A DNA stretch of 64,000 bases from Thermoleophilia bacterium (GCA_040776965.1 JAXGZO010000001.1:483498-547497), one strand, 5' to 3'. Positions 160 through 46,886 are shown, numbered from the stretch's first letter. A program made the numbers and translations. Notes: generated from the sequence alone by a model not told the origin.

Positions 160-266
160 CTCAGCGCCTCCCGGGGGCGTGAGCCAGCGTAAGTGGGGGA
201 TGCTCCTTGATCGGAATGTTAGGGTAGTGTTTTTATCCAGTCAAGGTCTCGTTACGTTCATAGGGC

Positions 267-311: not shown

Positions 312-339
312 CTTGGCTGGATGTCGCTCGGTGTTGCCC

Positions 340-1769: not shown

Positions 1770-1779
1770 ATCCGACCTC

Positions 1780-3925: not shown

Positions 3926-3926
3926 A

Positions 3927-8363: not shown

Positions 8364-8585
8364 TCGCACTCCTTTAACGGAATCGCGGAAGGTCCAAGAC
8401 ACGGCGAGCTGGAGAGACCACCCCCAGCTCACCCTTGGTCACTGTGCATAGTATATACCGCCTCTCGGGGAGCTATCGTCGCTCTGTAGGTGCTCTTAAA
8501 AGGCGGTGGAGCGGAGCGTCACCGCCTTCGGTGGCGTATGCTGAAAGGGCAGACAACAGGAAGAGTTCTTACGAGGGGGCGCACA

Positions 8586-9631: not shown

Positions 9632-12262
9632 TTACGCGTCGCGGCGGAGCCAGTCGGGCAGGTCGCTTGCGTGGGGGAGCTTTGGCGTGCGCGCTTTGCT
9701 CGGGTTCTCCGCCGTCCCGAGCCAGCGGTCGAGTACCTTAGAGCGCCAGATGGCGCGGCAGAGCAAGCTCCAGATGGCCGCGAGGGCGAAGAGCACGAGG
9801 TACTGCCACGGCGGCAGCGCTTGGAGCTCGAAGAGGATGCGCCCGAGCGGCACGGTAAGCACGGTCGCCATGACCACGAAGAGAAACGCCACAACACCGT
9901 AGATCCGGTTGTCGACGTGGCTCTCGGGTGTGCCACCCGCCCACCACGGGCTGGGCGGCACTACGAGCATGATCAAGAAGATCGCGGCGAAGCAGGCGAA
10001 GATGGTGAGCGCGGTCTGCGCCGGCGGGTAGGCGAACTGCATGAGCGCGTCTTGCCCCGCGGTGGGGTTAAGCGCGAGGTAGGCACGCTTCGCCGGCACG
10101 GCCCACAGCAGGTACACGCCCGTCGCCATCGCCGTCATGAGCAGGGTGGCGGGCACCACGAAACGAGCCAGGAGCTTAAAGAGCCCCACCTTGGGTGTGG
10201 GGCCGGGCTTAGCCCAGAGGGCGAAGACCAGCGCCGGCACGGTCGCCCCGAAAAACGAGAGCAGCGCCGACTGGCGCGGGGCGAAGGGAAAGCTGCCGAG
10301 CGCCGTGATGATGGCGATCATAAAGGCCTTAAAGAAGATACGCACCATGAAGATCCGCAGGATGTTGTTCATGCCGTTGATGATGCGCTGACCCTCGCGG
10401 AAGGCGAAGGGGAGGGGGGCGAAGGTGTTTTTGGTGAGGATGAGGTCGCCGACGCTGCGCGCCGCCTGGCTGCCGCCCTGCATGGCTACGGCCACGTTGG
10501 CCTGCTTGAGGGCGATCACGTCGTTAACGCCGTCGCCGACCATGGCCACGTAGTGGCCTTTTTTGCGCAGGGCGAGCACGAGGTCCTGCTTTTGCTCGGG
10601 GGTAACGCGGCCGAAGATCTGCGTTCGCTCGGCGGCGGCGCTGAAGGCCTCCTCGTCCATCGCCGCCAGCTCATCGCCGGCCACGGCGACGAGCTGGCCG
10701 GGGGCCGAAGGGCCTCCGGCCTCGGCCTCACCTGGCGCTTCGCTCTCGTCGTCTTGCGCTCGACGGTGCAGGCCGGCCTGCGTGGCGAGCGCGCTGACGG
10801 TGTGGGGGTTGTCGCCCGAGATGATCTTGACGTCGATGCCGCTTGTGGCGAAGCTCTCGAGCGTTTTGCGCACGCCCGGGCGGAGCTCGTCGCTGAAGAA
10901 GAGGAGCGCGAGCGCTTTGAGGCCGTTCGGGAGGGTGGGGGTGTCGTTGCGCTCGCCGAAGGTGAGCGGCTCGGCGCACCCGGCGAAGAGGAGCACGCGC
11001 AGGCCCCGCGCGGTGTGCTCCTCGGCGAGCGTGCGCCAGCTCGCCTCGCCGAGGAGCTGCGGCGCGATGATCTCGGGGGCGCCCAGCACGTACGTGCCCT
11101 GCGCCGCCCCCTCGTTAAACACGAGCCCGCCCCACTTGCGCTCGGAGGAGAAGAGCGCCTCTTCGGCTGTGCCCTCGGCGGCTGAGGGCAGTGCGCCTCG
11201 CAGCGCCTCGATCGTCTGGTTGGCGTCGGCGGTGCTCGCGGCGTAGGTGGCGAGCAGGGAGGTCGCCCGCTGCTCGTCCTCGTCACCGAGCGTGCGGAGC
11301 TCCTCAAAGCGGATCGCCCCGGTTGTGAGGGTGCCGGTTTTGTCGGTGCACAGTACATCTACGTTGCTCAGCGACTCCACGGCGCTCGCCTGCTGCACGA
11401 GCATGTCGCGGCCCAGCAGGCGCATGGCGCCGAGGGCGTACGTGAGGGCGATAGAGAGTACGAGCCCGTTGGGGATGAGGGCGAGGATCACCGTGGACAT
11501 GCGCACGCTCTCCACGAAGGGGATGCCGCCCACCACGTTGCGCAGCCACACGAGCGCCTCGAAGACTATGACGACGATGAGGAGGATCCGCACCACCTGC
11601 GTGACCTGGCGCTGGAGCGGTGTGAGCTCGCGTTTGTAGGCCGTGGCCTTCGCGGTGAGCTTGTTGGCGAAGCTCTCGAGCCCGACCTTCTCCGCACAGT
11701 AGTATCCGCCGCCGGCGGTGCAGAAGCTCCCCGACATGAGGAGCTCGCCGGCCCGCTTGCTCACGGCGTCCGCCTCGCCGGTGAGGAGGGACTCGTCGAG
11801 CTCGATGCGCCCCTGGCTGAGCAGGGGGCCGTCCACGACCACTTGGTCCCCCGGCTGAATAAAGAGCACGTCGCCCACTACGATCTGCGAGGGGTCTACC
11901 TCTCGTAGCTCCTCGTCGCGCACCACCATGGCCTTGGGGCGCATCAAGATCGTCATCTTATCCATGATGCGCTTGGCGCGGATCTCCTGCACGAGGCTGA
12001 TCAGCGTGTTGGCGGCGATGATAAAGACGACGGCGAAGGCGTCGAGCGGCTTGCCCAGCACCAGCAGGAGGATGCCGAGGAAGTAAAAGAGGTTGTTGAT
12101 GAAGTTAAAGACGTTGTCGCGGACGATGCGGCTGTAGCTTCGCCCGGCGCGGATCTCCGCGTTGTTGCCCTGGCCGGCGGCGCGTCGGCGGCCGGCCTCC
12201 TCCTCGGTGAGGCCGGCGAACGGCGGGTGCTGCGTGCTCGATGGTGCGGTCACAAGGGGCAC
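9632..12262 (-). CDS. Cation-translocating P-type ATPase (HAD-IC type, not P1B)
   Basis: 876 aa. Motifs DKTGTLT, TGEA, GDGVNDVIALKQANVAVAM, and about 10 hydrophobic segments. GTG start is uncertain. Confidence 0.85.
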   Translation of the reverse strand: MPLVTAPSSTQHPPFAGLTEEEAGRRRAAGQGNNAEIRAGRSYSRIVRDNVFNFINNLFYFLGILLLVLGKPLDAFAVVFIIAANTLISLVQEIRAKRIMDKMTILMRPKAMVVRDEELREVDPSQIVVGDVLFIQPGDQVVVDGPLLSQGRIELDESLLTGEADAVSKRAGELLMSGSFCTAGGGYYCAEKVGLESFANKLTAKATAYKRELTPLQRQVTQVVRILLIVVIVFEALVWLRNVVGGIPFVESVRMSTVILALIPNGLVLSIALTYALGAMRLLGRDMLVQQASAVESLSNVDVLCTDKTGTLTTGAIRFEELRTLGDEDEQRATSLLATYAASTADANQTIEALRGALPSAAEGTAEEALFSSERKWGGLVFNEGAAQGTYVLGAPEIIAPQLLGEASWRTLAEEHTARGLRVLLFAGCAEPLTFGERNDTPTLPNGLKALALLFFSDELRPGVRKTLESFATSGIDVKIISGDNPHTVSALATQAGLHRRAQDDESEAPGEAEAGGPSAPGQLVAVAGDELAAMDEEAFSAAAERTQIFGRVTPEQKQDLVLALRKKGHYVAMVGDGVNDVIALKQANVAVAMQGGSQAARSVGDLILTKNTFAPLPFAFREGQRIINGMNNILRIFMVRIFFKAFMIAIITALGSFPFAPRQSALLSFFGATVPALVFALWAKPGPTPKVGLFKLLARFVVPATLLMTAMATGVYLLWAVPAKRAYLALNPTAGQDALMQFAYPPAQTALTIFACFAAIFLIMLVVPPSPWWAGGTPESHVDNRIYGVVAFLFVVMATVLTVPLGRILFELQALPPWQYLVLFALAAIWSLLCRAIWRSKVLDRWLGTAENPSKARTPKLPHASDLPDWLRRDA

Positions 12263-12423: not shown

Positions 12424-12843
12424 TCAAGAGCTCAGCATCGTGCTCATCACGGGGAGCAAGAAGAGGAGGAAGATAACGACGCCGAGCACGCTGCAGATAA
12501 CGCCGGCGATCGCCCAGTTCCTCTGCGTGAGCTTAAACGCCTCGGCGCTCTCCCAGTACTTGCCCTTCCACGCCCACTCGCGCCCCTTCACCCCGCAGAC
12601 GATCGCCCAGATGAGCGCTCCCCCGGGGATGAAGGCGAGGAGTAGCCCCCAGAGGGTGATATAGGCGCCGTTGAAGATGCCCCAAAGCCAGGTGAAGAAA
12701 AACGCGCCCCAGCTCCATCCGCGCAGCTCGGGTGGCAGTACGGTGAGGCGGCCGAGGCCGCTCTCCTGCGAAGGCGTCAGCGTAACCGGCGTTGCCGGCG
12801 CGGGTGGTGTGACGGCCGGCTGGCCCTCGAGTGGCTCCGTCAT
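12424..12843 (-). CDS. Small Trp-rich membrane protein translationally coupled to the hydrogenase small subunit
   Basis: ATG 12841-12843 overlaps the stop of the upstream gene as ATGA. 139 aa: Pro/Thr-rich N-terminus, then WSWGAFFFTWLWGIFNGAYITLWGLLLAF and a C-terminal helix. Confidence 0.6.
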   Translation of the reverse strand: MTEPLEGQPAVTPPAPATPVTLTPSQESGLGRLTVLPPELRGWSWGAFFFTWLWGIFNGAYITLWGLLLAFIPGGALIWAIVCGVKGREWAWKGKYWESAEAFKLTQRNWAIAGVICSVLGVVIFLLFLLPVMSTMLSS

Positions 12844-13331
12844 GGCTCTCTCCCTTGAGTCGGTTGCCGGCGCCCGTGGCGCAGCGCGAGCGCCTCGCGC
12901 AGGTGCTCTATGAGTACCCTCGGCTCCGGCGGACAGCCCGGCACGCGCACGTCGACCGGGATGATTCGCTCCACTGGTCCGGCCAGCTCGGCGGGGTCGC
13001 CGAGGAGGCCGCGGCCGAGCGCACACTCGCCCATCGCCACCACGAGCCGTGGCTCCGGCATGGCCTTGTAGGCGATGCGCAGCGGCTCGGCCATGCGCGT
13101 GGTCACGCACCCCGTCACCAGGAGCACGTCGGCGTGGCGCGGCGAGGCCACCACGCTGATGCCGTAGCGGCTGAGGTCGTAGAAGGGCCCGAGCATGGCG
13201 CTGATCTCGTGCTCGCAGCCGTTGCAGGAGCCGGCGTCTACGTGGCGCACCGCGAGCGAGCCGCGCTCCTCGGGGGCCTTGAGGCCCCGCTCTCGGCGGA
13301 TCCGTTGCAGCTCTTTGAGGAGAACGAACAC
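12840..13331 (-). CDS. Group-4 [NiFe]-hydrogenase small subunit (NuoB/HycG/HyfI-like)
   Basis: 163 aa. GSCNGCEHE, SPRHADVLLVTG, GECA, VPGCPP (ligands of the proximal [4Fe-4S]). Confidence 0.9.
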   Translation of the reverse strand: MFVLLKELQRIRRERGLKAPEERGSLAVRHVDAGSCNGCEHEISAMLGPFYDLSRYGISVVASPRHADVLLVTGCVTTRMAEPLRIAYKAMPEPRLVVAMGECALGRGLLGDPAELAGPVERIIPVDVRVPGCPPEPRVLIEHLREALALRHGRRQPTQGREP

Positions 13332-13339
13332 GGTGGCTC

Positions 13340-14764
13340 CTAGCGATCGGTGCAGGCGTAGCAGAGCTCGAAGCTCTTGTTGATGAGCGGGAAGTCGGGG
13401 AAGATCTGGCCGGTCGCAGCGAGGGCGAGCGCCGGCCAGTTGGTGTATGAGGAGGTGCGGAGGTGGAGGCGGGCGATGCGCCCCTCCACCGCCTCCACCA
13501 CGCAGGCGGTCTCGCCGCGCGGGCTCTCTATGAGGCCGACCCCGAGCGGTTGCTTCGGCTTGGTGTGTACGGCGCTCGCAGGCCGGTGGGCGCCGCGCAG
13601 GAGCTCGTCCAGCGAGGCGAGCGTGGGCGTGAGCTCCCGCGCTCGTTGCCGCACTCGGCTGCTCACGTCGCCGGTGGGCTCCGAGAGCATGGTGGCGGTG
13701 AAGCCGGGGTAGTGCAGGCGATCGCGGGAGAAGAGGCGCGCGTCGCGGGCGACGCCGGAGGCGCGCGCCGCAGGCCCCACCGCGCCGACCGCGAGCGCTT
13801 GCTCGCGGGTGAGGGGGCCGAAGTCCCTAAACCGGTCCTGTACCGAGGCGTTAAAGAGGATCTCGTCCCACGCCTCGGCGGCGGTGCGCCCGAGGGCGGC
13901 GAGCTCCGCTCGCGCCGCCGCCGCGTCGTCGGCTGCGATCTCGAGGGTGCTTTCTCCAACGGCGATGGAGCCGAAGAGGAACCGGTGGCCCGTGAGGAGG
14001 GAGTTGACGCGGTGGGCGCGCTCTTTGAGCGCGGCGAACGCCGCCGAGCCGGCGGCGAAGCCCACACCGGCGCACACGGCGCCTATGTCGTTGAGGTGGT
14101 TGTAGAGGCGCTCGAGCTCAAGCAGGAGCGTGCGTACGCGGGCGAGCTCGCGTGAGGGGGTGAGGCCCGTGATGCTCTCGCAGGCGTGCGCGTAGGCGAG
14201 CGAGTTGCTGATGGCGCAGGCGCCGCAGGCTCGCTGCGCGAAGGCGATGCCCTCGTGGAGCGGGGAGCCCTCGGCCGCCCGCTCGATGCCCCGGTGTTTG
14301 TAGAAGAGCCGCACGTCGATGTGGAGGATCCGCTCGCCTACGGCGTGAAAACGGAAGTGCCCCGACTCAATGACGCCCGCGTGGATGGGGCCCACGGCGA
14401 CGTGGTAGGCGTCGCCGCCGCGCACGGGGATCGTCCAGGCGGCGAGGTCGGGGGTGTGTTCGAGGAACGGCCGTAGGGGGCGGTGCCCCTCGAAGTCGAC
14501 GCCGTAGGCGTCGTGAGCCTCGCGCTCGCTCCAGGCGGCCGCCGGGGTCTGCTCCACGATCGAGGGCACCTGGCCGCTCACGATCGGGCAGGAGAGCACC
14601 TCCGTCCCGTTGCGACCGGTGAAGAGCGCCCTGACGGCGAAGCTCGCTTCGCCGGCTCGCTCGTCATCGTTTGCGTTGACGACGTAGAGCGTGGTGAAGG
14701 TGCCGTTGGCCTGCGCCTCGCGGCAGCGTTCGCGCCACGCTGTTGGCTCTATAAAGGCGATCAC
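13340..14764 (-). CDS. Group-4 [NiFe]-hydrogenase large subunit with an N-terminal NuoC-like domain (HycE/HyfG-like)
   Basis: 474 aa. NuoC-like EREAHDAYGVDFEGHRPLR. N-terminal Ni-Fe motif RACGACAIS. Protein ends exactly at the C-terminal motif ELCYACTDR with no extension. Confidence 0.9.
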   Translation of the reverse strand: MIAFIEPTAWRERCREAQANGTFTTLYVVNANDDERAGEASFAVRALFTGRNGTEVLSCPIVSGQVPSIVEQTPAAAWSEREAHDAYGVDFEGHRPLRPFLEHTPDLAAWTIPVRGGDAYHVAVGPIHAGVIESGHFRFHAVGERILHIDVRLFYKHRGIERAAEGSPLHEGIAFAQRACGACAISNSLAYAHACESITGLTPSRELARVRTLLLELERLYNHLNDIGAVCAGVGFAAGSAAFAALKERAHRVNSLLTGHRFLFGSIAVGESTLEIAADDAAAARAELAALGRTAAEAWDEILFNASVQDRFRDFGPLTREQALAVGAVGPAARASGVARDARLFSRDRLHYPGFTATMLSEPTGDVSSRVRQRARELTPTLASLDELLRGAHRPASAVHTKPKQPLGVGLIESPRGETACVVEAVEGRIARLHLRTSSYTNWPALALAATGQIFPDFPLINKSFELCYACTDR

Positions 14765-16239
14765 GGCAGCGCTCCTGCGAGAAGTGCGAGGGTATCCCAG
14801 CCGGGGAGGAGGAGGACGGACGCGGCGAGGGCGATGAGCAGTACGCCGGCCGTGACGGAGAGGGCGAGGATCGCCCGGCCACCGTCGCCGTCGCCCTCTT
14901 TACTCTGCCGCCCCGGCGCCATGAGGTCGTCGACGAGCACGCGCGAGAGCCCGAGGAAGCCGAGCGCGAGCAGTACGGCGGCCAACGCCGCCGCCACGGT
15001 ATGCCCCGCCGCGAAGCCGCCGGCCACGATCAAGACCTCGCTGAAGAAGAGGGGCGAGGGCGGCAGGCCGCTGAGTGCGCCGACGCTGAGGCTCATGGCG
15101 TTGGCGAGCTGTGGGTTGGAGCGCCGAAGCCCGTGCACGTGTCGGTACCTCGCCGAGGGCTGCACCTGTAGCAGCGGCGTGGCGACGCTGAAGCCGAGTG
15201 TTTTGGCCACGGCGTGCCCCGCGACGTGCAGCAGCACGCCGGCGATCGCCAGGGGGTGCCCGAAGCCGATGCCGAGCGCGAGGATGCCCATATTCTCGAG
15301 GCTGGAGTAGGCGAGGAGGCGCTTCCAGGCCATGCGGCGCCAGAGGAACGGCACGGCGACGGCGAGCGAGATGAGCCCGAACCCGAGGAAAAACGCGCGG
15401 CCCGTTGAGGGGGTGAGCGCGCCGTCGAGGGCGATCCAGACGCGCCAGGCGACGAGCATGACGTTGGGGAGCAACGCCGCCGAGAGCAGGGCGGAGACGG
15501 GCGGCGGCGCCTCACTGTGCGCGTCGGGGAGCCAGTTGTGCACGGGCGCCCAGCCGATCTTAGTGGCGAGGCCGACGATGATCAGCAAGAAGCCGGTGAG
15601 GGCGGTGTCGTGGGGCATGCGCGCTGCGGCTGCGGCGAGGTTCTCCCAGGAGAGCGCCGTGAGGCTATGGCCGGAGTGCGCCGCCGCGCAGATAATAACG
15701 ATGCCGTACAGCGAGATCGCCAGGCCGACGGTGGTGAGGAGTAGGTACTTCCAGCAGGCCTCGAGGGCCGTTGCGTAGCCGCTCTGGGCGACGAGGAGGG
15801 TGGAGACCCCGGTCGTGGCGGCGATAACGACCCACGCCGCCCCGAGGTTACCCAGCATCGGCAGGGCGAGGAGGGCCGCCCAGAAGATGTGGAAGCAGAC
15901 GTAGTACCACACATCCTCTGACTCGGTGTGCCAGAGCGTTTCGTGACGCGACCGCAAAAACGCCGGCGAGATGACCGCCGCGCAGAGGCCCACGATGCCC
16001 GCGACGGCGAGGAAGGGCGCGCCGATGGTGTCGGTCTGCAGCCAGCCGCCGAAGAAGGAACCGCCGTGGCCGAGGAGTGCGAGCGCGGCGAGGGCGAGCG
16101 CCGTGCAGCCCGTTGGGATCGCGGCCACGAGGTTAAACGTGGCGTGCAGCGAGGGGCGCCTGACGACGAGGATGAGCAGGGCGCCGAGGAGCGGGAGGGC
16201 GATCGTGACCACACAGAGGATGCTCTGCAGCTCAGTCAC
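14761..16239 (-). CDS. Antiporter-like membrane subunit (NuoM/N, HyfF-like)
   Basis: 492 aa polytopic protein. WAPVHNWLPDAHSEAPPPVSALLS matches the NuoM/N/Mrp signature. GTGA overlap. Confidence 0.85.
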   Translation of the reverse strand: MTELQSILCVVTIALPLLGALLILVVRRPSLHATFNLVAAIPTGCTALALAALALLGHGGSFFGGWLQTDTIGAPFLAVAGIVGLCAAVISPAFLRSRHETLWHTESEDVWYYVCFHIFWAALLALPMLGNLGAAWVVIAATTGVSTLLVAQSGYATALEACWKYLLLTTVGLAISLYGIVIICAAAHSGHSLTALSWENLAAAAARMPHDTALTGFLLIIVGLATKIGWAPVHNWLPDAHSEAPPPVSALLSAALLPNVMLVAWRVWIALDGALTPSTGRAFFLGFGLISLAVAVPFLWRRMAWKRLLAYSSLENMGILALGIGFGHPLAIAGVLLHVAGHAVAKTLGFSVATPLLQVQPSARYRHVHGLRRSNPQLANAMSLSVGALSGLPPSPLFFSEVLIVAGGFAAGHTVAAALAAVLLALGFLGLSRVLVDDLMAPGRQSKEGDGDGGRAILALSVTAGVLLIALAASVLLLPGWDTLALLAGALP

Positions 16240-16849
16240 GGAGCTTCCTCAAACTGTGCGTGTCGCCGCCGCCGAACTCCTCGAAGATGCGCTCGTGGAG
16301 CAGGGCGACGACGACGGTGACGACGATGAGGTCGATCGCCACGCCGAGCTCCACGACGAGCGGCAGCCCTCCGGGCACGCCGATGGCCGCCAGGGCCACG
16401 CCGTTCTCGGCGATGAGCAGCCCGAGCGCCTGTAGGATCGTCTCCCGACGGGTGATCACCGTGATGATGCCGGTCGTGAGGAGGGCGACGCTGGCGTGCT
16501 CCGCCGTCGGCGTCTCGAGTCCGAGCTGCGGTAGCAGCGCGATGCCCGCCAGGGAGACGGCGAGCGCCAACCCGACGTTGGGCAGCGCCTTCATCTTCTG
16601 CTCAACGGGCTTTCGCTCCCGGGTGCGGCGCACGCTGAAGCCGAGCAGGATGAGGAGGGGGATGCTGCGCGCCAGCAGCACGAGGCCGGCGATGAGAAAG
16701 GCCGTGGGTCGCCCCGGTGCCAGTAGGAGCGCCCCCACGCCGAGGAGGATCGCCTGGAGCGCGACGAGCAGGATGGCGGCGGAGCGCCCTTGTACCAGGA
16801 TAACGAGAAATCCGAGGGCGACGAGCGCCCACTGCAGGGTGTCGTTCAC
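16232..16849 (-). CDS. HyfE-like small membrane subunit (NuoK-related)
   Basis: Start set at GTG 16847-16849, overlapping the upstream stop (GTGA). About 205 aa, hydrophobic, with LIAENGVALAA near the C-terminal third. The upstream part of the ORF track is Arg-rich read-through. Confidence 0.7.
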   Translation of the reverse strand: MNDTLQWALVALGFLVILVQGRSAAILLVALQAILLGVGALLLAPGRPTAFLIAGLVLLARSIPLLILLGFSVRRTRERKPVEQKMKALPNVGLALAVSLAGIALLPQLGLETPTAEHASVALLTTGIITVITRRETILQALGLLIAENGVALAAIGVPGGLPLVVELGVAIDLIVVTVVVALLHERIFEEFGGGDTHSLRKLRD

Positions 16850-17772
16850 GGCGTCGCCCCCAGGTAGTGGCTGATGAGCCCGAGGAGGCACAGGGCGCCG
16901 CCGATGAGGAAGAGGCTCGGCACCCGCAGCACGCGCATCTTCGCCTGGAGGGTCTCGATAACGGCGAGCACGACGCAGAGGAGCGGGAGCGCGACGGCGA
17001 GCGTCAGCAGCCGCAACGCAAAGTCCGTGGGGTGCGGCACGAAGAGCTCGGTCGCGAGCACGAGCATGAGCCAGTGCCGCGCAGCAGATGCCCACTGGAA
17101 GTAGGCGAGGTCGCGGCCCGCGTACTCGAGGAGCGGGCCCTCGTGGATCATGGTGAGCTCCAGGTGGGTGTCGGGGTTATCGATGGGTTGGCGGCCGGTC
17201 TCAGCCAAGATCACGATGATAAAGCCGAGGGCCGCCAGCCAGTGCGCCGGCGTGCTCCACACGGCGAGGCCGGCGCTCGCGTCGCTGAGCGAGCGCAGAT
17301 CCGTGCTCCCGAGGCGGAGCCCGGCCACGAGGAGTACGAGAAACAGCAGGCCCTCCGCGAGTACCGAGAAGGTGAGGTCGCGGCTGGCGCCCATGAGGCC
17401 AAACCCGCCGCTCGTGTCCCACGCGGAGGCCACGAGCGCGAAGCGCGCGAGGGTGAGCAGTGCGATGAGCACGAGCACGTCGTTGCCGACCGGCCAGTTA
17501 GGGGAGAGTCCGCCGATCGGGAGGAGGAGGCAGGCCGTCGCCGTGGCGCCGGCTACGAGCGCCGGGGCGAGGCGGTATACAAAGGTGGTGCCCTCCGGCG
17601 CCACCACGCTCTTGCCCCAAAGGCGCCGGAGCTCCCGGTAGGGCTGCAGCGGTGAGGGTCCGCGCCGGCCCTGCAGCTTCGCCTTTACGTTTTGAACGAG
17701 GCCGGGGAGGAGGGGGGCGAGCAGCAGGGCGCCGCCCACCTGCACGATGCCGGCGATGGCGGTTGCGCTCAT
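16846..17772 (-). CDS. NuoH/HycD/HyfC-like membrane subunit
   Basis: Start at ATG 17770-17772 (ATGA overlap). MSATAIAGIVQVGG...KAKLQGRRGPSPLQPYRELRRLWGK is typical of NuoH/HycD. 308 aa. Confidence 0.85.
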   Translation of the reverse strand: MSATAIAGIVQVGGALLLAPLLPGLVQNVKAKLQGRRGPSPLQPYRELRRLWGKSVVAPEGTTFVYRLAPALVAGATATACLLLPIGGLSPNWPVGNDVLVLIALLTLARFALVASAWDTSGGFGLMGASRDLTFSVLAEGLLFLVLLVAGLRLGSTDLRSLSDASAGLAVWSTPAHWLAALGFIIVILAETGRQPIDNPDTHLELTMIHEGPLLEYAGRDLAYFQWASAARHWLMLVLATELFVPHPTDFALRLLTLAVALPLLCVVLAVIETLQAKMRVLRVPSLFLIGGALCLLGLISHYLGATP

Positions 17773-19793
17773 CGGAGCACCCCTATCTTCGCGGCGGCCA
17801 GCAGGAGGAGGACGAGCGCGAGGAGGTACAGCATATAGGTGCGTACGCTGCCCGACTGGAGCCGCCGTGCGCGCTCCGCGGCGCTCAGCGCCCAGCGTAC
17901 GACCGGCTCGTAGAGCCGCGTCTCGAAGAGGTGGGGCACCTCGCTCTTGTAGGTGAGGTGTTGCGGCACGCCGCCCTCGGAGGTGAGCGTGACGCTTCGC
18001 TCGGGTCGCAAGATGCCCGCGAGCGAGAGCCTCATGAGCTTTGTGAAGCCGGCGGAGCTCCAGGAGAGCTGGGGCACGACCTGTTGTCCGCAGTTCCACA
18101 CCGGTGCCGAGGTCGCGGTGCGGCGGCCGCGGGCCGCACGGAGCACCGCGACGACGCAGACGAGCACGAGCGCGACGCCGAGGTTGGAGAGGCCGCCGGT
18201 GCCGGGCAGCGCGATGCCGAGGTGCGCGAGGGCGCCCTCGGTGGCCGGCGCCCACGTCGTGCTGCCGGATATCTCGGCGCCGATGCCGGCGAGGTGTGGG
18301 AAGAGGAGGCCGGGGGCGAGCCCCAGTCCCACGCAGAGGAGTGCGAGCAAGGAGGTGCCGACGACCATGCCGCGGGGCGCCTCATGGGCCTGCGCACACG
18401 CCTCGGAGCGCGTGGGGCCGAGCAAGGTGAGGCCGATCACTTTAATGAAGCAGAAGGCGGCGAGGGCGGCGGTGACCGCGAGGGCGGCAACGCAGAGCGC
18501 GCTCGTGACCATGCTGATGGCGCCCAAGCTCGCCCCGGGGAGCAACGAGCCCAGCACGGCGTCGCCACTGTTGGTGACGAGGTGGATGAGCGCTTGGAGG
18601 GTGAGCCACTCGGAGGCGAACCCATTGAGCGGCGGCAAGCCCGCTATGGCCATGCCGCCGAGCAAGAAGCCGGCGCCTGTGTACGGCATGGAGCGCAAGA
18701 GGCCGCCGAGCCGGTTGAGGTTGAGCCCATTGACGATTCGCGCAAAGGATCCCGCACCCAGGAAGAGGAGGCTCTTGTAGAGGGCGTGGTTGGCGATGTG
18801 GAAGAGGGCGGCGGCGAAGGCGATCGTGGCCCACACGGGTTGGTTGCTGGCGGCGAAGAGGAGGGAGGCGCCGAGCCCGAGGAGGATGATGCCGACGTTC
18901 TCGATGGTGCTGAAGGCCAGGAGCCGCTTGAGCTCCCGCTGGAAGAGGGCGTAGGCGATGCCCCCGAGCGCCGAGAGCGCGCCGAGCCCGAGGAGGAGGA
19001 GCGCGAGCCACACCGGCGTGGCGCCGAGCCACTCGAAGACGACGCGGATGAGGCCGTAGAGAGCCACTTTAACCATCACGCCCGACATGAGCGCGGAGAA
19101 GTGGCTGGGGGCGAGGGGGTGGGCCTGCGGCAGCCACGTGTGGAAGGGCATGGCACCGGCCTTGGTGCCGAACCCAATGACGGCGGCCACCGCGACGATG
19201 GCCTGCACGGCGCCTCCGGCCGCGCGGGTGGCGCCGGGGTCGCCGATGCCGCCCACCCCGGCCAAGAGCAGCAAGCAGATCCACACGCCGGCCGAGCCGA
19301 GGTGGGTGATCGCGAGGTAGGTGAAGACGGCGCTACGGGCCGTTTGCTCCTTGCGGGTGATGAGGATAGCCGCGGCGGGGATCAGCGTCATGAGCTCCCA
19401 GAAGAAGAGAAAACAGAGGGCGCTGCGCGCCGTGATTACGCCGGCCAGCGCGAGCACGAAGCCGGCGCTCAGCACGCCGAGCGAGCGGCTGTGCTCCGGG
19501 TCGTCGGCGTAGGCGCTCGCGTAGATCAGCACGGGGCAGGCGCAGAGCGCGAGGACCGTGAGGAAGAAGCCGGTGAGGGCGTCGAGGCCGAAGGTGAGGG
19601 CTACGCCGTTCGAGAAGGTCGCGCCGCCTCCGGGTGCGCGGCAGAGCAAGAGCACGCCGGCGGCCCCAAAGCAGGCCGCGCCGGCGGCTTGCAACGCGTA
19701 GGCGGGTACCCGTGCGCGGCGCACGAGGGCGAGCGATCCGCCAGCCAGGAGTACCCCCGTGCCGGCCAGCGCTAAGAGCTCTGTGGCCGTCAA
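17769..19793 (-). CDS. NuoL/HyfB-like antiporter-type membrane subunit
   Basis: Polytopic with WLPQAHPLAPSHFSALMSGVMVK. I place the start at TTG 19791-19793, giving about 674 aa. The ATG at 19928 would add about 45 Arg/Pro/His-rich residues. Start is uncertain. Confidence 0.8.
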   Translation of the reverse strand: MTATELLALAGTGVLLAGGSLALVRRARVPAYALQAAGAACFGAAGVLLLCRAPGGGATFSNGVALTFGLDALTGFFLTVLALCACPVLIYASAYADDPEHSRSLGVLSAGFVLALAGVITARSALCFLFFWELMTLIPAAAILITRKEQTARSAVFTYLAITHLGSAGVWICLLLLAGVGGIGDPGATRAAGGAVQAIVAVAAVIGFGTKAGAMPFHTWLPQAHPLAPSHFSALMSGVMVKVALYGLIRVVFEWLGATPVWLALLLLGLGALSALGGIAYALFQRELKRLLAFSTIENVGIILLGLGASLLFAASNQPVWATIAFAAALFHIANHALYKSLLFLGAGSFARIVNGLNLNRLGGLLRSMPYTGAGFLLGGMAIAGLPPLNGFASEWLTLQALIHLVTNSGDAVLGSLLPGASLGAISMVTSALCVAALAVTAALAAFCFIKVIGLTLLGPTRSEACAQAHEAPRGMVVGTSLLALLCVGLGLAPGLLFPHLAGIGAEISGSTTWAPATEGALAHLGIALPGTGGLSNLGVALVLVCVVAVLRAARGRRTATSAPVWNCGQQVVPQLSWSSAGFTKLMRLSLAGILRPERSVTLTSEGGVPQHLTYKSEVPHLFETRLYEPVVRWALSAAERARRLQSGSVRTYMLYLLALVLLLLAAAKIGVLR

Positions 19794-19944
19794 CGTGGGG
19801 GCTCGCCGGGGGTGTCGCCGCCGCGAGGGGAGCGCCGAGGGGGCTGGCGCATCATCGGCTGATCCTCTGTGGTGGGGGCGGCGTTCATCATGGTGCGGCG
19901 TAGTATATAAGACAGCGAGAGTCGGCACGCCGTCGGGGGGCTTA

Positions 19945-19984
19945 ACGACGAAGGGCGCCCGTGTGCACGGGCGCCCTTCGTCGT
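19945..19984 (-). terminator. Long GC-rich hairpin between the POR operon and the hydrogenase cluster
   Basis: acgacgaagggcgcccgtg...cacgggcgcccttcgtcgt. Arms of about 17-19 bp, 21 nt after the stop at 20005. No clear U-tract, so it could be a terminator, attenuator or processing site. Confidence 0.6.
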
Positions 19985-20004
19985 TCGCAACAGAGCTCGG
20001 CGGG

Positions 20005-23000
20005 TTACCGCAGCAGGCGGCCGTTGGCCTGGCGATGCTCCTGCCATTCGGCCTCGCTCGGCTCGCCGCACTTGCGCAAGAGCTTCCCCCATTCCTGGTC
20101 GACCCAAGCCTCGAGGTTGAGGAGGACCTCCTCGCTGCCGGGCTTAAAGAGGTGGGCGAAGCGCCCCTGCCGCTTGAGCCATGGAATCAGTGGCTGCTTA
20201 ACCTGCGGCCGGTAGGTGAGTCGGTACTCGCCGTCCTCCACCTCGAAGAGCGGCCAGTAGCAGGTGTTAACCGCCTCGCGGGCCATGTCGATGGAGTCGG
20301 CCGTCTCCGAGCGCCACCCGCGCGGGCAGGGCGCGAGGACGTTCAGGAAGGTCGGGCCGTCGAAGGCGAGGGCCTTGGCGGCCTTTCGCACGAGGTCGCG
20401 GGGGTCGTGCGGCGACGCCTGTGCCACGTACCGAATGCCGTGCGCGACCAAGATGTCGGTGAGGTTCTTGCGGTTCTGCAGCTTGCCGGCCTGCTCCCTG
20501 CCCACCGGGCTAGTGGTGGTCCAGGCGCCCAGCGGGGTGGCGCCGGAGCGCTGGAACCCGGTGTTCATGTAGGCGCCGTTGTCGTAGCAAACGTAGAGCA
20601 TGGCGTGGCCGCGCTCCATGGCACCGGAGAGCGCCTGCAGGCCGATGTCGTAGGTGCCGCCGTCGCCGCCGAAGGCGATGAACTTAACGTTCTCCTCTAT
20701 CTCGCCCTTCTTCTTGAGCGCGCGGAAGGCCGTCTCCACGCCGGAGAGGGAGGCCGCAGCGTTCTCGAAAGCCGAGTGGATGTAGCTGCTCTTCCAGGAG
20801 GTGTAGGGGTAGATCGTTGTGGAGACCTCCAGGCAGCCGGTGGCGGCGCTCACCACAACCGGGTCGTCCGTGCCCATGAGCACCTGCCGCACCACGACCG
20901 GGGCGCCGCAGCCGGCGCACATGCGGTGGCCGCCGGCGAGCATGCTGCCCTTGGCGACGAGCTCGAGCCACTTGGCGCGAGCGTCTTCGAAGTGGTTCGT
21001 CTGCTTAATGGCGCCGACCGGGCAGCTGTTGACACACTCGCTGCACATAATGCAACGGCTCTCGTCGAGGTTAAACGAGAGGAGCTCGCGCTGGTTGAAG
21101 GTGAGCGCGCCGGTGGGGCAGTCGGTGACGCAGCGCCCGCAGCTCACGCAGTCGGTGAGCTGAAGCGCCTCGCCGTAGGGCGTGTCGACCTTCATGGTGA
21201 ACCCGCGGTCGGTGAAGTCGTAGCACGCCGGTCCGGCTACCTCGCGGCAGGTGCGTACGCAGCGCCCGCACGAGATGCAGCGGTTCATGTCGCGGCGGAT
21301 AAAGGGGTGCTCGTACTGCGGCTCGACCTCGCGCACGCGACCGCCCTTAACGACCAGGTCGTTCTCGACGATGTTGTGCTCCACCGCGAGCCTCTGCAGG
21401 TCGCAGGAGCCGAGGCTCGGGCACTCGCACTGCAGGCAGCGCATGGCCTCGGCGCGTGCCGCCGCGAGGCTGTAGCCCTTCTCCACCTCGAGCTCGCCCT
21501 CGGTGAGACGCCGCGCTTTGCCGACCTTCGGCATAGTGGGGCGGGTCGCCGTCTCGGCGTTGATGCCCATGCTCAACCAGACCGGCGTGCGCTCGGCGAG
21601 GCGACGCCCGAGCTCGCTGAGGTCTTTCTCGGCGTCGAGCTGCTCTAAGTAGGGGAGGCTGGCGAAGTCGGCGAGTTGCTCCTCCAGCTCGCCGAGGTCC
21701 TCGCCGCGAAGCCAGGCGTCGACGGCGAGGGCCGCGCGCTTACCGGTCGCTACGGCGTGGATCACCGAGCGGGAACGGGCTATGGCGTCGCCGGCCGCGA
21801 AGACGCCCTCCTCCGAGGTGCGGCCCGTGTAGTAGTTGGCCCGCAGGCGGGTGTCGGTGTCGAGGGGCAGGTAGTCGGCGGTGTCGCCGAGCTTGGGTGT
21901 GTAGCCGGTGGCCAGCACGACGGTGGTGGCCTCGGCCGTAAAGACCGAGCCCTCGATCTCCGCCGCCGCGCCGTTTTTGCCGCCCACGCGCACGCACTCG
22001 ACGCCCTGTGCTCTGCCGGAGTCTGAGAGCACGCGCTTGGCTAGGGTGTTGAACTCGAACTTTACCCCCTCTTCGCGCGCCGCTGTGAGCTCGCGGGCGC
22101 CCGCGGGGAGGGTCTCGGGGGTGTTCGGCGAGATCACGACGACCTCGCTGGCCCCCTTGCGGCGGGCCGTACGCGCCACGTCGAGCGCCGTGATGCCGTC
22201 GCCGATCACGGCCACCGTGTCGGTGAGCTTAACGCTGCGCCCGGTGCGCGCCCGGCGCAGTACGTCGAGGCCGCGGAGGGCCGCTTTGTCGCCGGGGATA
22301 ACTTGCTTCGGCTCCTCCCAGGCGCCGACGCTGATGACCACGGCGTCGAACCCGGCGTCGAAGAGCCCGTCGGGGTCGACCTCGAACCCGAGCTCGGACT
22401 CGCCGACGAAGCGTACGCCGGCCTCCCAGAGCGGGGCGAGTTCCTTCTCGATGACCTTCTCCGGCAGGCGGAACTCGGGGATGCTGTAGCGGAGCGAGCC
22501 GCCGGGGCGCTCGTTGCCGTCGTAGAGCGTAACCTCGTTGCCGCGCTCGGTGAGGAACCAGGCGGCGGCGAGGCCGGCCGGGCCCGCGCCGATAACGGCG
22601 ATCCGCCGGCCGGTCGTGATGCCCGGGAACAGCTGCGGCTCGCTGTGGTCGGCGGCCGCCCGGTGCAGGGCGCAGATGGCGATGGGGTCGTCTACCTCGC
22701 CGCGGCGGCAGACGGGCTCACAGTAGCGCGGGCACACGCGCCCGAGGATGCCGGGGAAGGGCAGCTCCTCGCGCACGATCGTGGCCGCCGTCGCGGTGTC
22801 GCCGTCGGCGAGGGCCGCCATGTAGGCGGGGATGTCGACGTGCGTGGGGCACGCGTGTGAGCAAGGCGCCTCGCAGTACGAGTTGTGGTCGGAGAGGTAC
22901 ATCTTGAGGTAGCTCTCGCGCCGTGCGCGGATGCGCGGTGTGCTCGTTTGCACCACCATGCCGTCGGCGACGGTGGTGGTGCAGGCCGCCTGCGGCTTGT

Positions 23001-23190
23001 CCCAGCCCTCAACCTCGACCACGCAGAGGCGGCAGGCGCCCCACGCGGCCATACCGGCCTGGTGGCAGAGCGCCGGGATCTCGATGCCCTCCCGGCGTGC
23101 GACGTCGAGGAGTGTTTCGTCGCCTCGGGCGCTGATCTCCCTCCCGTCGATCGTGAGCTTAACGGTGGCTTTGGTGGTTCGTTGGCTCAC
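20005..23190 (-). CDS. Fusion protein: [2Fe-2S] NuoG-N-terminal domain + GltD-like Fe-S/FAD/NAD(P)H module + NuoG-type [4Fe-4S] domains + PorB (TPP-binding beta subunit of 2-oxoacid:ferredoxin oxidoreductase)
   Basis: 1061 aa. GGAAGGAGG RBS, GTGA overlap with the upstream gene. aa 8-88 LTIDGREI...CHQ...GACRLCVVEV. aa ~100-497 CPTHVDIP...RIAVIGAGPAGLAAAWFL...GGSLRYSIPEFRLP...VFAAGDA. aa ~585-730 CLQCECPSLGSCDLQ, CISCGRCVRTC, CVSCGRCVTDCP, CIMCSECVNSCP. aa ~745-1061 GHRMCAGCG...GGDGGTYDIGLQALSGA...CYDNGAYMNTGFQRS (PorB/TPP). Confidence 0.9.
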   Translation of the reverse strand: MSQRTTKATVKLTIDGREISARGDETLLDVARREGIEIPALCHQAGMAAWGACRLCVVEVEGWDKPQAACTTTVADGMVVQTSTPRIRARRESYLKMYLSDHNSYCEAPCSHACPTHVDIPAYMAALADGDTATAATIVREELPFPGILGRVCPRYCEPVCRRGEVDDPIAICALHRAAADHSEPQLFPGITTGRRIAVIGAGPAGLAAAWFLTERGNEVTLYDGNERPGGSLRYSIPEFRLPEKVIEKELAPLWEAGVRFVGESELGFEVDPDGLFDAGFDAVVISVGAWEEPKQVIPGDKAALRGLDVLRRARTGRSVKLTDTVAVIGDGITALDVARTARRKGASEVVVISPNTPETLPAGARELTAAREEGVKFEFNTLAKRVLSDSGRAQGVECVRVGGKNGAAAEIEGSVFTAEATTVVLATGYTPKLGDTADYLPLDTDTRLRANYYTGRTSEEGVFAAGDAIARSRSVIHAVATGKRAALAVDAWLRGEDLGELEEQLADFASLPYLEQLDAEKDLSELGRRLAERTPVWLSMGINAETATRPTMPKVGKARRLTEGELEVEKGYSLAAARAEAMRCLQCECPSLGSCDLQRLAVEHNIVENDLVVKGGRVREVEPQYEHPFIRRDMNRCISCGRCVRTCREVAGPACYDFTDRGFTMKVDTPYGEALQLTDCVSCGRCVTDCPTGALTFNQRELLSFNLDESRCIMCSECVNSCPVGAIKQTNHFEDARAKWLELVAKGSMLAGGHRMCAGCGAPVVVRQVLMGTDDPVVVSAATGCLEVSTTIYPYTSWKSSYIHSAFENAAASLSGVETAFRALKKKGEIEENVKFIAFGGDGGTYDIGLQALSGAMERGHAMLYVCYDNGAYMNTGFQRSGATPLGAWTTTSPVGREQAGKLQNRKNLTDILVAHGIRYVAQASPHDPRDLVRKAAKALAFDGPTFLNVLAPCPRGWRSETADSIDMAREAVNTCYWPLFEVEDGEYRLTYRPQVKQPLIPWLKRQGRFAHLFKPGSEEVLLNLEAWVDQEWGKLLRKCGEPSEAEWQEHRQANGRLLR

Positions 23191-25100
23191 CGTTGCCTCC
23201 TTCCGGCCGGCTTCAGTATGCCTGTCTCTATCGGAATCGCGCCGAACTTACAGACCTGACGGCAGGTGTCGCATTTCGTACAGAGCTTCTGATTGATGAC
23301 GTGTGGCTCCTTGCGCTCGCCGCTGATCGCCCCCACGGGGCAGACCTTGGAGCAGAGCGTGCACCCGGTGCAGGCGTTTTTGTCGATGGTGTAGCGGATA
23401 AGCGGCCGGCAAACCTTAGCGGGGCAGCGCTTGTCGACCACGTGCGCCATGACCTCCTCGCGGAAGTAACGGAGCATGCTGAGCACCGGGTTGGGCGCGC
23501 TGCCGCCGAGGGCGCAGAGGGAGCCCTCGATGATGTCTTCGGCGAGGCGCTCAAGGCGGTCCACGTCGGCCAGTGTGGCCTCGCCGCAGCTGATGCGCTC
23601 GAGGATCTCGAGCATACGGGTGGTACCCACGCGACACGGCACGCACTTCCCACAGCTCTCCTGCGCCGTGAACTGCAAGAAGAACTTGGCGAAGTCGACC
23701 ATGCAGGTGGCGTCGTCCACCACCACCATGCCGCCGGAGCCCATCATGGTGCCGTACTTGGTGAGGTTCTCGAAGTCGATCTCGGTGTCGAGGTGCTCGG
23801 CGCCGAGGCAGCCACCGGAGGGGCCACCGAGCTGCACGGCCTTAAACTCGCGGCCGGGTAGCATGCCGCCGCCTATGTCGAAGATCACGGTGCGCAGCGT
23901 GGCGCCCATGGGCACCTCGATGAGGCCGCCGTTGACGACCTTACCGGTGAGGGCGAAGATCTTGGTGCCCTTGCTGGTCTCGGTGCCGAGCGAGGCGTAG
24001 GCCTCGGCGCCGTTGGCGATGATCCACGGCACGCTCGCAAAGGTCTCCACGTTGTTGAGGTTGGTGGGCTGACCCCAGAGGCCGTGGGCCACGGTGCGGA
24101 TGTGCTTGCCGCGGGGCATACCCCTGCGGCCCTCGATGGAGGCGGTGAGGGCGGTGGACTCGCCGCAGACGAAGGCGCCGGCGCCCTCGTTGATGCGGAT
24201 GTCGAAGCTGAAGCCGGAGCCCAGGATGTTCTCGCCCAGGAGGTTGCGCTCGCGGGCGCGGTCGAGGGCGTGTTGGAGGCGCTCCACGGCGAAGGGGTAC
24301 TCGTGGCGTACGTACACGTAGCCCTCCACCGGGCCCACGCCCTGGCCGATCGCGTACGCGGCGATGAGCATGCCCTCAATGACGCTGTGCGGGTTGCCCT
24401 CCAGCACCGAGCGGTCCATGAACGCGCCGGGGTCGCCCTCGTCGGCGTTGCAGATGATGTAGTGCACCTCGCCGGGGTTGGCGCGGCAGAAGCGCCACTT
24501 CTTGCCGGCGGGGAACCCCGCACCGCCGCGGCCGCGCAGGCCGCTGGCCTCGACTGCGTCGATGACGGCCTCGGGGTCGTCGTCGATGAGGACCTTCGCT
24601 AGGGCCTTGTAGCCGCCTTGCGCGAGGTAATCGTCCAGCGAGTACGGGTCGATCTTGCCGTTGAGGCCGAGCACGAGGCGCTGCTGTAGCGCGTAGAAGG
24701 GGATCTCCGCCTCGTGGGCGATAGCCTCGCCGGTCTGCGGGTGCTTGTAGAGCAGCCGCTCCACAACGCCGTCGCCGACGACGCTCGTCTCGATGATCTC
24801 GTCGATGTCTTTAGGCTTGAGGCGCGGGTAGAAGAGGCCCTGTGGTCTGACGACCGCGATGGGGCCCTCTTCGCAGAAGCCGTGGCAGCCGGTCTCCACG
24901 ACGGCGACCTTGTCGCTCAGGCCGCGCTCGGCGAGGGAGGCGACGATGGCCTCGCGCAGGGCGACGCGGCCGGAGGCGTGGCAGGCCGTGCCGGCGCAGA
25001 TGCGGATCTCGACCTTCTCGTCGTCGGCGAGGTAGGCGCTGGCGTCTGCCGCTGCGGCGAGTGCCTTCTCGATCTTCGTAGCCTTTGCGGAGGCGGTCAT
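23187..25100 (-). CDS. NuoF/HydB-like FMN- and NAD(H)-binding flavoprotein with an N-terminal thioredoxin-like [2Fe-2S] and a C-terminal 2x[4Fe-4S]
   Basis: 637 aa. GLRGRGGAGFPAGKKW, ICNADEGDPGAF, ESCGKCVPCRVG, and C-terminal CTGCTLCSKVCP / CTKCDTCRQVC. ATGA overlap. Confidence 0.9.
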   Translation of the reverse strand: MTASAKATKIEKALAAAADASAYLADDEKVEIRICAGTACHASGRVALREAIVASLAERGLSDKVAVVETGCHGFCEEGPIAVVRPQGLFYPRLKPKDIDEIIETSVVGDGVVERLLYKHPQTGEAIAHEAEIPFYALQQRLVLGLNGKIDPYSLDDYLAQGGYKALAKVLIDDDPEAVIDAVEASGLRGRGGAGFPAGKKWRFCRANPGEVHYIICNADEGDPGAFMDRSVLEGNPHSVIEGMLIAAYAIGQGVGPVEGYVYVRHEYPFAVERLQHALDRARERNLLGENILGSGFSFDIRINEGAGAFVCGESTALTASIEGRRGMPRGKHIRTVAHGLWGQPTNLNNVETFASVPWIIANGAEAYASLGTETSKGTKIFALTGKVVNGGLIEVPMGATLRTVIFDIGGGMLPGREFKAVQLGGPSGGCLGAEHLDTEIDFENLTKYGTMMGSGGMVVVDDATCMVDFAKFFLQFTAQESCGKCVPCRVGTTRMLEILERISCGEATLADVDRLERLAEDIIEGSLCALGGSAPNPVLSMLRYFREEVMAHVVDKRCPAKVCRPLIRYTIDKNACTGCTLCSKVCPVGAISGERKEPHVINQKLCTKCDTCRQVCKFGAIPIETGILKPAGRRQR

Positions 25101-25891: not shown

Positions 25892-25892
25892 C

Positions 25893-27095: not shown

Positions 27096-27098
27096 GGT

Positions 27099-27485
27099 CT
27101 ACTCCTTCTCGTCGGTCTTCATGACGATGGCGTTACTGGGGCACTCCCGTGCGCAGATCCCGCACCCCTTGCAGTGGATGAGATCGAAGGAGGTGACCTT
27201 GCCGTCCTCCACGATCACCGAGGCGTCCGGGCAGTAAAAGTAGCAGAGCATGCAGCCGTCGCAGCGCTCGGGGATGAGCACGGGGAGGAAGGTACGCCAG
27301 CCGCCGGTCTCGTAAAAGGCGGAGTTGCCGGCCTCGGGGATCGTGGCGCCGAGCTCGTGGCGCTCGGGGCCCCACGAGGCGATGTCGCTGATATCCCACT
27401 TCGACTTGGGCATGACCGGCCTTATGGGGCACGCTCGCCTCGGTGAAGCCGCTTTCTTCGCCTCGGTCTCTTTTTCAGCGGTCAT
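27099..27485 (-). CDS. porD: 2-oxoacid:ferredoxin oxidoreductase delta subunit (2x[4Fe-4S])
   Basis: 128 aa. CDGCMLCYFYCP and CKGCGICARECP. Confidence 0.9.
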   Translation of the reverse strand: MTAEKETEAKKAASPRRACPIRPVMPKSKWDISDIASWGPERHELGATIPEAGNSAFYETGGWRTFLPVLIPERCDGCMLCYFYCPDASVIVEDGKVTSFDLIHCKGCGICARECPSNAIVMKTDEKE

Positions 27486-28084: not shown

Positions 28085-28086
28085 CG

Positions 28087-46789: not shown

Positions 46790-46886
<97 letters not shown>

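Follow-up and report, generated by a model that had tools for sequence, protein, structure and literature searches.

A group 4-type membrane [NiFe]-hydrogenase cassette without a NuoI-like subunit, adjoining a Por-Bfu-type operon, in a Thermoleophilia genome

Genes of the hydrogenase cassette

A stretch of 64,000 nucleotides (nt) from a bacterium labelled Thermoleophilia (GCA_040776965.1, JAXGZO010000001.1:483498-547497), referred to as the window below, contains a gene cassette for a membrane-bound [NiFe]-hydrogenase of the group 4 type. According to open reading frame (ORF) and start-codon calls, seven closely coupled genes occupy the minus strand from position 19793 (or 19928, with the alternative start of the first gene) down to 12424. 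The local G+C content of this region is approximately 68-70%. In their order on the minus strand, the genes are as follows.

17769-19793, minus strand: HyfB/HycC-like antiporter-type membrane subunit, first gene of the cassette, 674 amino acids (aa) from the favoured TTG start at 19793; a GTG at 19928 is an alternative start and would give 719 aa
16846-17772, minus strand: HyfC/HycD/NuoH-like membrane subunit, 308 aa; ATGA overlap between its start and the stop of the HyfB-like gene
16232-16849, minus strand: HyfE-like small membrane subunit related to NuoK/Oxidored_q2, 205 aa; GTGA overlap
14761-16239, minus strand: HyfF-like antiporter-type membrane subunit, 492 aa; overlaps the end of the HyfE-like gene
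13340-14764, minus strand: [NiFe]-hydrogenase large subunit of the NuoC-NuoD fusion type, 474 aa; GTGA overlap
12840-13331, minus strand: NuoB-type small subunit, 163 aa; starts 8 nt after the stop codon of the large subunit
12424-12843, minus strand: orphan Trp-rich membrane protein, 139 aa; ATGA overlap with the small-subunit gene

For the six membrane, large, and small subunits, Pfam and NCBIfam agree with the identities assigned in a preliminary description of this DNA. The HyfB-like protein matches Pfam Proton_antipo_M (E = 9e-41) and the NCBIfam model 'hydrogenase 4 subunit B' (5.7e-151), the latter from residue 65 of the long form onward. Its top match in the PDB is HycC of E. coli (7z0s_C, 7.7e-49), and the motifs containing the Glu of transmembrane helix (TM) 5, the Lys of TM7, and the Lys of TM12 (FWE, GTKAG..HTWLPQAH, and YKSLLF) are legible in the alignment with this protein. 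The HyfC-like subunit belongs to Pfam NADHdh (1.1e-38) and is matched best by HycD (7z0s_D, 4.8e-31). The HyfE-like protein is recognized by the NCBIfam model 'hydrogenase 4 membrane subunit' (5.9e-13) and, below the curated cut-off, by Pfam Oxidored_q2 (7.2e-4); the position of its gene is kept across related loci. The HyfF-like protein contains Proton_antipo_M (1.8e-34) and matches 'hydrogenase 4 subunit F' of NCBIfam (5.5e-75). The large subunit combines the Pfam domains Complex1_30kDa, Complex1_49kDa, and NiFeSe_Hases, and the small subunit is a member of Oxidored_q6 (9.7e-30). With its NuoD-type large, NuoB-type small, NuoH-like, and antiporter-like subunits the cassette displays the general traits of group 4. 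It is confirmed that it encodes a group 4-type membrane [NiFe]-hydrogenase, whose subunits correspond to HyfB, HyfC, HyfE, HyfF, HyfG, and HyfI; we take these names to denote the equivalent subunits B, C, E, F, G, and I of E. coli Hyf.

The seventh gene, the small Trp-rich membrane protein that the preliminary description had reported as ATGA-coupled to the end of the cluster, is confirmed by the ORF calls. Neither Pfam nor NCBIfam gives a match for this protein, even up to E = 10, and only one other protein cluster among 5.8 billion sequences resembles it. Among the related loci described below it was matched in a single one (L081), which is taken to be a 4.9-kb contig carrying the window's own genes. 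A conserved accessory role of this protein was considered and rejected on these three grounds. The Trp-rich protein lies outside the conserved cassette and is unrelated to the hydrogenase.

Active site and cluster ligands

The top PDB match of the large subunit is HycE (7z0s_E, 3.8e-53), with both CxxC pairs and the motifs ESGHF and ESPRG aligned. The Ni-Fe cysteines of HycE and MbhL have their aligned counterparts in RACGACA and ELCYACTDR, which provide the ligands C180, C183, C468, and C471. The protein stops straight after ...CYACTDR and lacks a C-terminal extension; hence, cleavage by a HycI-type enzyme is not expected. Both the presence of the two CxxC motifs and the stop exactly at the C-terminal motif had been noted earlier from the sequence and hold in the alignment with HycE. 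The terminus ...DR is also found in 120 of 120 large-subunit homologues among the matches listed. The four Ni-Fe cysteines are kept in 148-155 of 155 family members, and the Glu of ESGHF and the Arg of PRG are likewise conserved family-wide. The N-terminal L1 motif, in contrast, reads RAC[AG][AG]C..S/A-N across the family instead of the usual RxCGxCxxxH. Beyond the Ni-Fe motifs, two further cysteines of the large subunit are nearly invariant, C231 (154 of 155 members) and C421 (155 of 155). The former has an aligned Cys in HycE, and C421 (in PRGETAC) has no HycE counterpart.

The small subunit is most similar to MbhJ (6cfw_J, 6.2e-36), followed by HycG (7z0s_G, 1.6e-32). It contains one [4Fe-4S] site (C36, C39, C103, and C133) and no additional domain. 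The cysteines of this cluster are kept in 128-130 of 130 relatives.

The missing ferredoxin-type subunit

The characterized subgroups of group 4 (Hyc/Hyf, Ech, Coo, and Mbh) have a NuoI/HycF-like subunit in their gene clusters, whereas the window cassette has none. Its gene junctions are too tight for any further gene, and Pfam scans of all plausible ORFs found no NuoI/HycF-like, HycB, fdhF, cooS, or hyp genes in the 64-kb window. The junctions and scans thus bear out the earlier statement that neither a hidden 2x[4Fe-4S] gene nor fdhF, cooS, or hyp genes are present.

How far this gene content extends was judged from 161 related loci, which were obtained from two scans of species-representative genomes and four metagenomic contexts; the window itself was excluded from the motif scan. 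Relatives of the large subunit are numerous (more than 4,400 protein matches at E ≤ 1e-10), and the top non-self matches (55-67% identity) are proteins of Thermoleophilia, Gaiellales, Solirubrobacterales, and other Actinomycetota. One of the genome scans started from P0061, a protein labelled Mycobacteriales by its source; it yielded 80 loci of Solirubrobacterales, Thermoleophilia, and unclassified Actinomycetota, and no Mycobacterium locus is among them. All six genes are present in 143 of the 161 loci, and each of these 143 has the gene order and strand of the window. An ORF with two CxxCxxCxxxCP motifs occurred within the cassette in none of the 161 loci, and the flanks (up to 8-10 kb) contained a 2x[4Fe-4S] ORF in only three. 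A large and mainly actinobacterial family thus has the NuoI-less set as its invariant architecture. The lack of a NuoI/HycF/HycB-type subunit, on which the preliminary description had centred, is therefore real in the window but not peculiar to it, as 143 of 143 complete loci are alike. Its other premise, that the characterized group 4 enzymes contain a NuoI-like subunit, is agreed; a NuoI-less set has nonetheless already been catalogued, as discussed below.

A conserved neighbour of the Fer4, hyp, or fdh type was sought by clustering the flanks of the first 80 loci and by the motif scan of all 161, and was rejected. The clustering of flanking ORFs revealed a single conserved neighbour, a gene for an ArsR/SmtB-type helix-turn-helix (HTH) protein. 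It is located immediately upstream of the cassette and on the same strand in 97 of the 134 loci with enough sequence, and nearby in most other loci among those listed. In the three closest contexts (L082, L084, and L085) the stop codon of the ArsR gene overlaps the GTG start of the HyfB-like gene (GTGA). No ArsR homologue is encoded anywhere in the 64-kb window.

A neighbourhood of another kind was seen once. Locus L085 contains, at its positions 1-3171, genes for a Pyr_redox_2 protein, a molybdopterin oxidoreductase of 724 aa, and a Fer4_11 (HycB-type) protein. These formate-dehydrogenase-like genes end approximately 1.4 kb upstream of the ArsR gene of the cassette.

The Por-Bfu operon upstream of the cassette

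On the same strand and directly upstream of the cassette lies an operon rich in Fe-S proteins, which the preliminary description had proposed as the source of the missing electron wire. The features bearing on this proposal are as follows.

20005-28090, minus strand: Por-Bfu-type operon, identified by Pfam
19944-19985, minus strand: GC-rich perfect hairpin with a 19-bp stem and a 4-nt loop, without a U-tract
19790-19891, minus strand: possible 33-codon ORF (MMNAAPTTEDQPMMRQPPRRSPRGGDTPGEPPR), read from the sequence; it ends in a TGA that overlaps the TTG start of the HyfB-like gene (TTGA)
9632-12262, minus strand: P-type ATPase, directly downstream of the cassette
38423-40372, minus strand: second P-type ATPase

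The operon codes, in this order, for the gamma, delta, and alpha subunits of POR, for a NuoE-like and then a NuoF-like protein, of which the first has an additional Fe-S motif and the second a 2x[4Fe-4S] domain at its C-terminus, and for a fusion protein of 1061 aa. In this fusion, a NuoG-N-terminal [2Fe-2S] domain is joined to a FAD/NAD(P) flavoprotein of the GltD/Nfn-like kind, to Fe-S domains of the Nqo3 and dicluster types, and to the TPP-binding domain of POR beta. A Por-Bfu class has been described, and Mbh-Bfu has been proposed (Schut et al., 2022; PMC9304861). With its 1061-aa fusion, the operon in the window resembles a hybrid of Por and Nfn within the Bfu family. The part of the fusion up to residue ~700 recurs at approximately 30-37% identity, together with NuoE/NuoF-like genes, in Lentisphaeria, Victivallales, and others.

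The hairpin that had been reported just past this operon is real and has a perfect stem of 19 bp. It begins approximately 20 nt past the TAA (20007-20005) of the last operon gene, and the 111-nt stretch around it has a predicted folding energy of -56.3 kcal/mol (z = -6.0). Comparable long, perfect, and GC-rich hairpins follow the orthologous fusion gene in approximately ten relatives that lack the cassette. Thus, the hairpin in the window is the Por-Bfu operon's own 3' element. The operon and the HyfB-like gene, both on the same strand, are 212 nt apart with the favoured TTG, or 77 nt if the earliest possible start is used. No riboswitch or other known RNA was found between operon and cassette, and a scan for consensus promoters and terminators flagged nothing at this junction. 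The possible 33-codon ORF occupies the spot where relatives carry the ArsR gene. It was considered as an ArsR remnant, and this was rejected as it has no similarity to ArsR.

The comparison across genomes did not support a general association of the two gene clusters. The whole Por-Bfu operon is found at 64-83% identity in approximately 20 genomes, nearly all of which are labelled Thermoleophilia, Gaiellales, Actinomycetes, or Actinomycetota. In no case does the cassette occur within the examined distance (up to 10 kb) downstream of the operon, and conversely the Por-Bfu operon adjoins the cassette in none of the 161 scanned cassette loci; two of the latter contain unrelated POR matches of 29-37% identity. 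A check of co-occurrence between the subunit set and the POR operon, suggested along with the original proposal, gave disjoint sets: judged by accession prefix, cassette-bearing and operon-bearing genomes share no assembly. The degrees of relatedness also differ. The nearest relatives of the operon are 77-83% identical (the fusion protein 83%) vs. 67% for the best relative of the large subunit. Hence, there are close operon-bearing relatives of the source organism that have no orthologous cassette. In three such relatives (L086, L087, and L102), the next recognizable window gene after the operon is an orthologue of the P-type ATPase (62-73% identity), which follows the fusion gene at a distance of 1.2-5 kb; the gap between them is occupied in L086 by a convergent gene. 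As the ATPase orthologue follows next after the operon in these closest relatives, operon and ATPase are the conserved neighbours, and the cassette between them is the segment that varies. The cassette is inherited independently of the Por-Bfu operon, and the adjacency of the two is specific to the source genome among those sampled. The idea that the POR/NuoEF operon supplies the missing wire consequently finds no comparative support.

Comparison with known systems

Among solved structures, formate hydrogenlyase (FHL)-1 of E. coli (Hyc, 7Z0S) contains the closest matches for the HyfB-like, HyfC-like, and large subunits. However, the group 4a enzymes of E. coli have HycB/HyfA, HycF/HyfH, HyfD, and FdhF, all of which are absent from the window cassette. 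Their large subunit also has a cleavable C-terminal extension and a His in L1, in contrast to the extension-less large subunit of the window with Asn in place of this His.

The published six-gene hydrogenase clusters are closer in composition. Group 4f (Ehf) of HydDB comprises membrane-bound clusters of six genes, which are described in the literature as uncharacterized, with an unknown or only presumed donor and a presumed coupling to formate. Examples named there are Thermus KQ693_10100-10125, D. hafniense ACL22288-93, D. orientis Desor_1265-1270, and Methylocystis ehfA-F. The window cassette, with four membrane subunits, one large subunit, and one small subunit, matches these published descriptions, by which it is likened to 4f. 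The presumed link of 4f to formate is not visible in the window. Some sequences of other phyla assigned to 4f have no CxxC motifs and are regarded as non-hydrogenases, whereas the family of the window cassette has kept the Ni-Fe cysteines.

In Mycobacterium tuberculosis, the ArsR/SmtB repressor Rv0081 precedes rv0082-rv0087, six genes for a putative [NiFe]-hydrogenase or predicted formate hydrogenlyase, which Mycobrowser names as two 'oxidoreductases', hycD, hycP, hycQ, and hycE. Compared by literature description, Rv0081-Rv0087 resembles the window cassette in having six structural genes, with no HycB/HycF-type gene listed. An ArsR-type gene is located upstream in M. tuberculosis and in most relatives of the window cassette, but not in the window, where in turn the orphan membrane gene is present that the M. 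tuberculosis locus lacks. Of the two 'oxidoreductases' we assume one to be NuoB-like and the other HyfB-like. The small-subunit gene is presumably the first gene of the M. tuberculosis locus, whereas it is the last one of the six in the window.

Two published concepts resemble the idea of a hydrogenase fed by the Por-Bfu operon. In Dehalococcoides, BfuABC genes stand among six Ech-like genes (Mbh-Bfu; PMC9304861), and complexes of formate dehydrogenase (FDH) and Ehr with NuoE/NuoF-like genes have been proposed (FDH-Ehr; PMC6349859). The concept is alike insofar as a NuoE/NuoF-type (BfuBC) module is tied to a six-gene energy-converting hydrogenase, and POR to BfuABC. With Mbh-Bfu and FDH-Ehr already proposed, a NuoE/NuoF-type module that feeds a membrane hydrogenase would not be new. 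The arrangement differs, however: in Mbh-Bfu the Bfu genes are embedded in the hydrogenase operon, whereas in the window they belong to an operon of their own upstream, with a conserved hairpin at its end.

Proposed function and alternatives

The cassette probably encodes a self-contained hydrogenase of six subunits, in which ferredoxin would dock directly on the small subunit and H2 formation would be coupled to ion translocation. A reduced, low-potential soluble carrier, most likely ferredoxin, may bind to the NuoB-type small subunit at the site that is occupied by NuoI in related complexes. As no NuoI is bound, the single [4Fe-4S] cluster of the small subunit would be near the surface. From there, electrons would pass to the Ni-Fe site, where protons would be reduced to H2, possibly in a reversible manner. 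The membrane module of HyfC/HyfE and HyfB/HyfF would couple H2 formation to the translocation of ions. The neighbouring Por-Bfu enzyme would then be a plausible metabolic source of reduced ferredoxin rather than a structural partner.

A source of this kind would be in line with another gene cluster of the window (340-8432, minus strand), which contains MetF/MetV and Hdr/MvhD-type genes:

3927-8432, minus strand: HdrA-like multi-flavin/Fe-S fusion of 1501 aa
3401-3925, minus strand: MvhD/FlpD
2721-3707, minus strand: MetV-like protein
1780-2724, minus strand: MetF
1197-1769, minus strand: HdrC-like protein
340-1200, minus strand: HdrB-like CCG protein

We take this cluster to be a methylene-tetrahydrofolate reductase arrangement of the Wood-Ljungdahl type, which suggests an anaerobic lifestyle. 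The source organism looks like an anaerobic relative of Thermoleophilia. In an organism with MetF/MetV-HdrABC-MvhD genes, a POR-type enzyme is an obvious source of reduced ferredoxin.

Several points weigh against a ferredoxin-dependent, H2-forming enzyme of this type. To our knowledge, every structurally characterized group 4 enzyme uses a NuoI-like subunit, and no experimental precedent is known for the direct docking of ferredoxin on a NuoB-type subunit. The L1 motif is atypical, with Ala after the first Cys in most members and Asn replacing His family-wide, and hyp genes are absent from the 64-kb window. Donor, direction of the reaction, and ion coupling are properties that we infer for the window enzyme. 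The kinship of the family with 4f and with the M. tuberculosis locus, finally, would follow from gene content and from the description of the regulator.

The last-mentioned kinship leads to an alternative in which the enzyme is a formate hydrogenlyase that is completed by a formate dehydrogenase and a HycB/HycF-like ferredoxin from another locus. The literature annotates both 4f and Rv0081-0088 as putatively formate-coupled, the large and membrane subunits are nearest to E. coli FHL among solved structures, and in L085 the molybdopterin oxidoreductase and Fer4_11 genes lie approximately 1.4 kb upstream of ArsR. However, the coupling to formate is predicted in the literature by analogy. Genes for formate dehydrogenase and HycB/HycF are absent from the 64-kb window, ArsR is the sole conserved neighbour in the first 80 loci, and only three of 161 loci have a 2x[4Fe-4S] ORF in their flanks. 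A formate hydrogenlyase assembled in this way is unlikely. The unusual L1 motif (RAC[AG][AG]C...N) and the lack of hyp genes in the window might instead indicate that H2 is not evolved at all, and that the enzyme either translocates ions as an Ehr-like oxidoreductase of another substrate or oxidizes H2 and feeds a membrane acceptor. Many relatives are from soil genomes of Thermoleophilia and Solirubrobacterales, including the isolate Solirubrobacter soli, and these groups are largely aerobic. The CxxC-less sequences assigned to 4f in other phyla, regarded as non-hydrogenases, would fit such a function as well. Nevertheless, the four Ni-Fe cysteines, the Glu of ESGHF, and the Arg of PRG are conserved throughout the family of the window cassette. 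Moreover, the Ni-Fe site by homology sits at the position of the quinone head-group pocket, and no obvious quinone site is therefore left. An enzyme that does not evolve H2 is improbable.

The proposal of the preliminary description, in which the Por-Bfu enzyme docks on the small subunit in place of NuoI and forms a pyruvate- or NAD(P)H-driven, H2-evolving respiratory complex, draws on the situation in the window itself. Both clusters are co-directional and separated by 77-212 nt, and the window cassette lacks the ArsR gene of almost all its relatives, so that its expression could depend on the upstream operon. Read-through is conceivable, as the hairpin lacks a U-tract, several 2x[4Fe-4S] domains in the operon could serve as the wire, and Mbh-Bfu and FDH-Ehr are conceptual precedents. 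All of this is countered by the comparative data. The adjacency recurs in none of the 161 cassette loci and in none of the approximately 20 operon loci, the ATPase follows next after the operon in L086, L087, and L102, and the genome sets are disjoint by accession prefix. The best identities of 67% vs. 83% point to separate histories, the hairpin also ends the operon in cassette-free relatives, and the Bfu genes are not inside the hydrogenase operon as they are in Mbh-Bfu. It is thus hardly probable that docking of the Por-Bfu enzyme explains the missing subunit. A more specific version would confine the link to a single lineage, as the absence of ArsR, the shared strand, and the gap of 77-212 nt make read-through and a lineage-specific functional link possible. 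In this one anaerobic lineage, the NuoI-less cassette would have lost its ArsR gene, been captured directly behind the Por-(Nfn)-Bfu operon, and be co-expressed with it by read-through, and an Fe-S domain of Por-Bfu would replace NuoI in a pyruvate-driven (or NAD(P)H/ferredoxin-confurcating), ion-pumping, and H2-evolving complex. If true, a 'complex I with a POR head and a hydrogenase tail' would exist in nature. We regard this scenario as very improbable; a physical complex of Por-Bfu and hydrogenase is possible solely as a peculiarity of this lineage.

Other features of the window

Outside the gene clusters discussed above, a protein of 443 aa with Fer4_5 and dicluster Fe-S domains is encoded at 45501-46832 on the minus strand, between two tRNA-Ser genes. 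Domains of the Fer4_5 type are typically found in membrane-bound NapH/MauN-like proteins. This protein is not NuoI-like and is not linked to the cassette. The end of the window (53488-64000) is a likely prophage, integrated beside a tRNA-Leu(taa) gene (53488-53583). It contains genes for an integrase (53628-54761), YqaJ and RecT recombination proteins (55604-57459), and a tail sheath protein (60829-62358). The G+C content is lower there (0.57-0.63), and a dip to 0.51 precedes it at 50-52 kb.

Implications

The window cassette does not reveal a new system but adds a member to a kind of hydrogenase that is already catalogued and biochemically uncharacterized. The question that it raises concerns the whole family, namely how a complex I-like hydrogenase obtains electrons with the cluster of its NuoB-type subunit alone, without the NuoI wire. 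By gene content and regulator, this family also takes in the hypoxia-induced Rv0082-87 of M. tuberculosis, and it is abundant in soil Actinomycetota. The locus in the window contributes a member from an anaerobe with Wood-Ljungdahl-type genes, which has no ArsR gene and is adjacent to a Por-Bfu operon. This neighbour suggests a concrete electron donor, ferredoxin reduced by POR.

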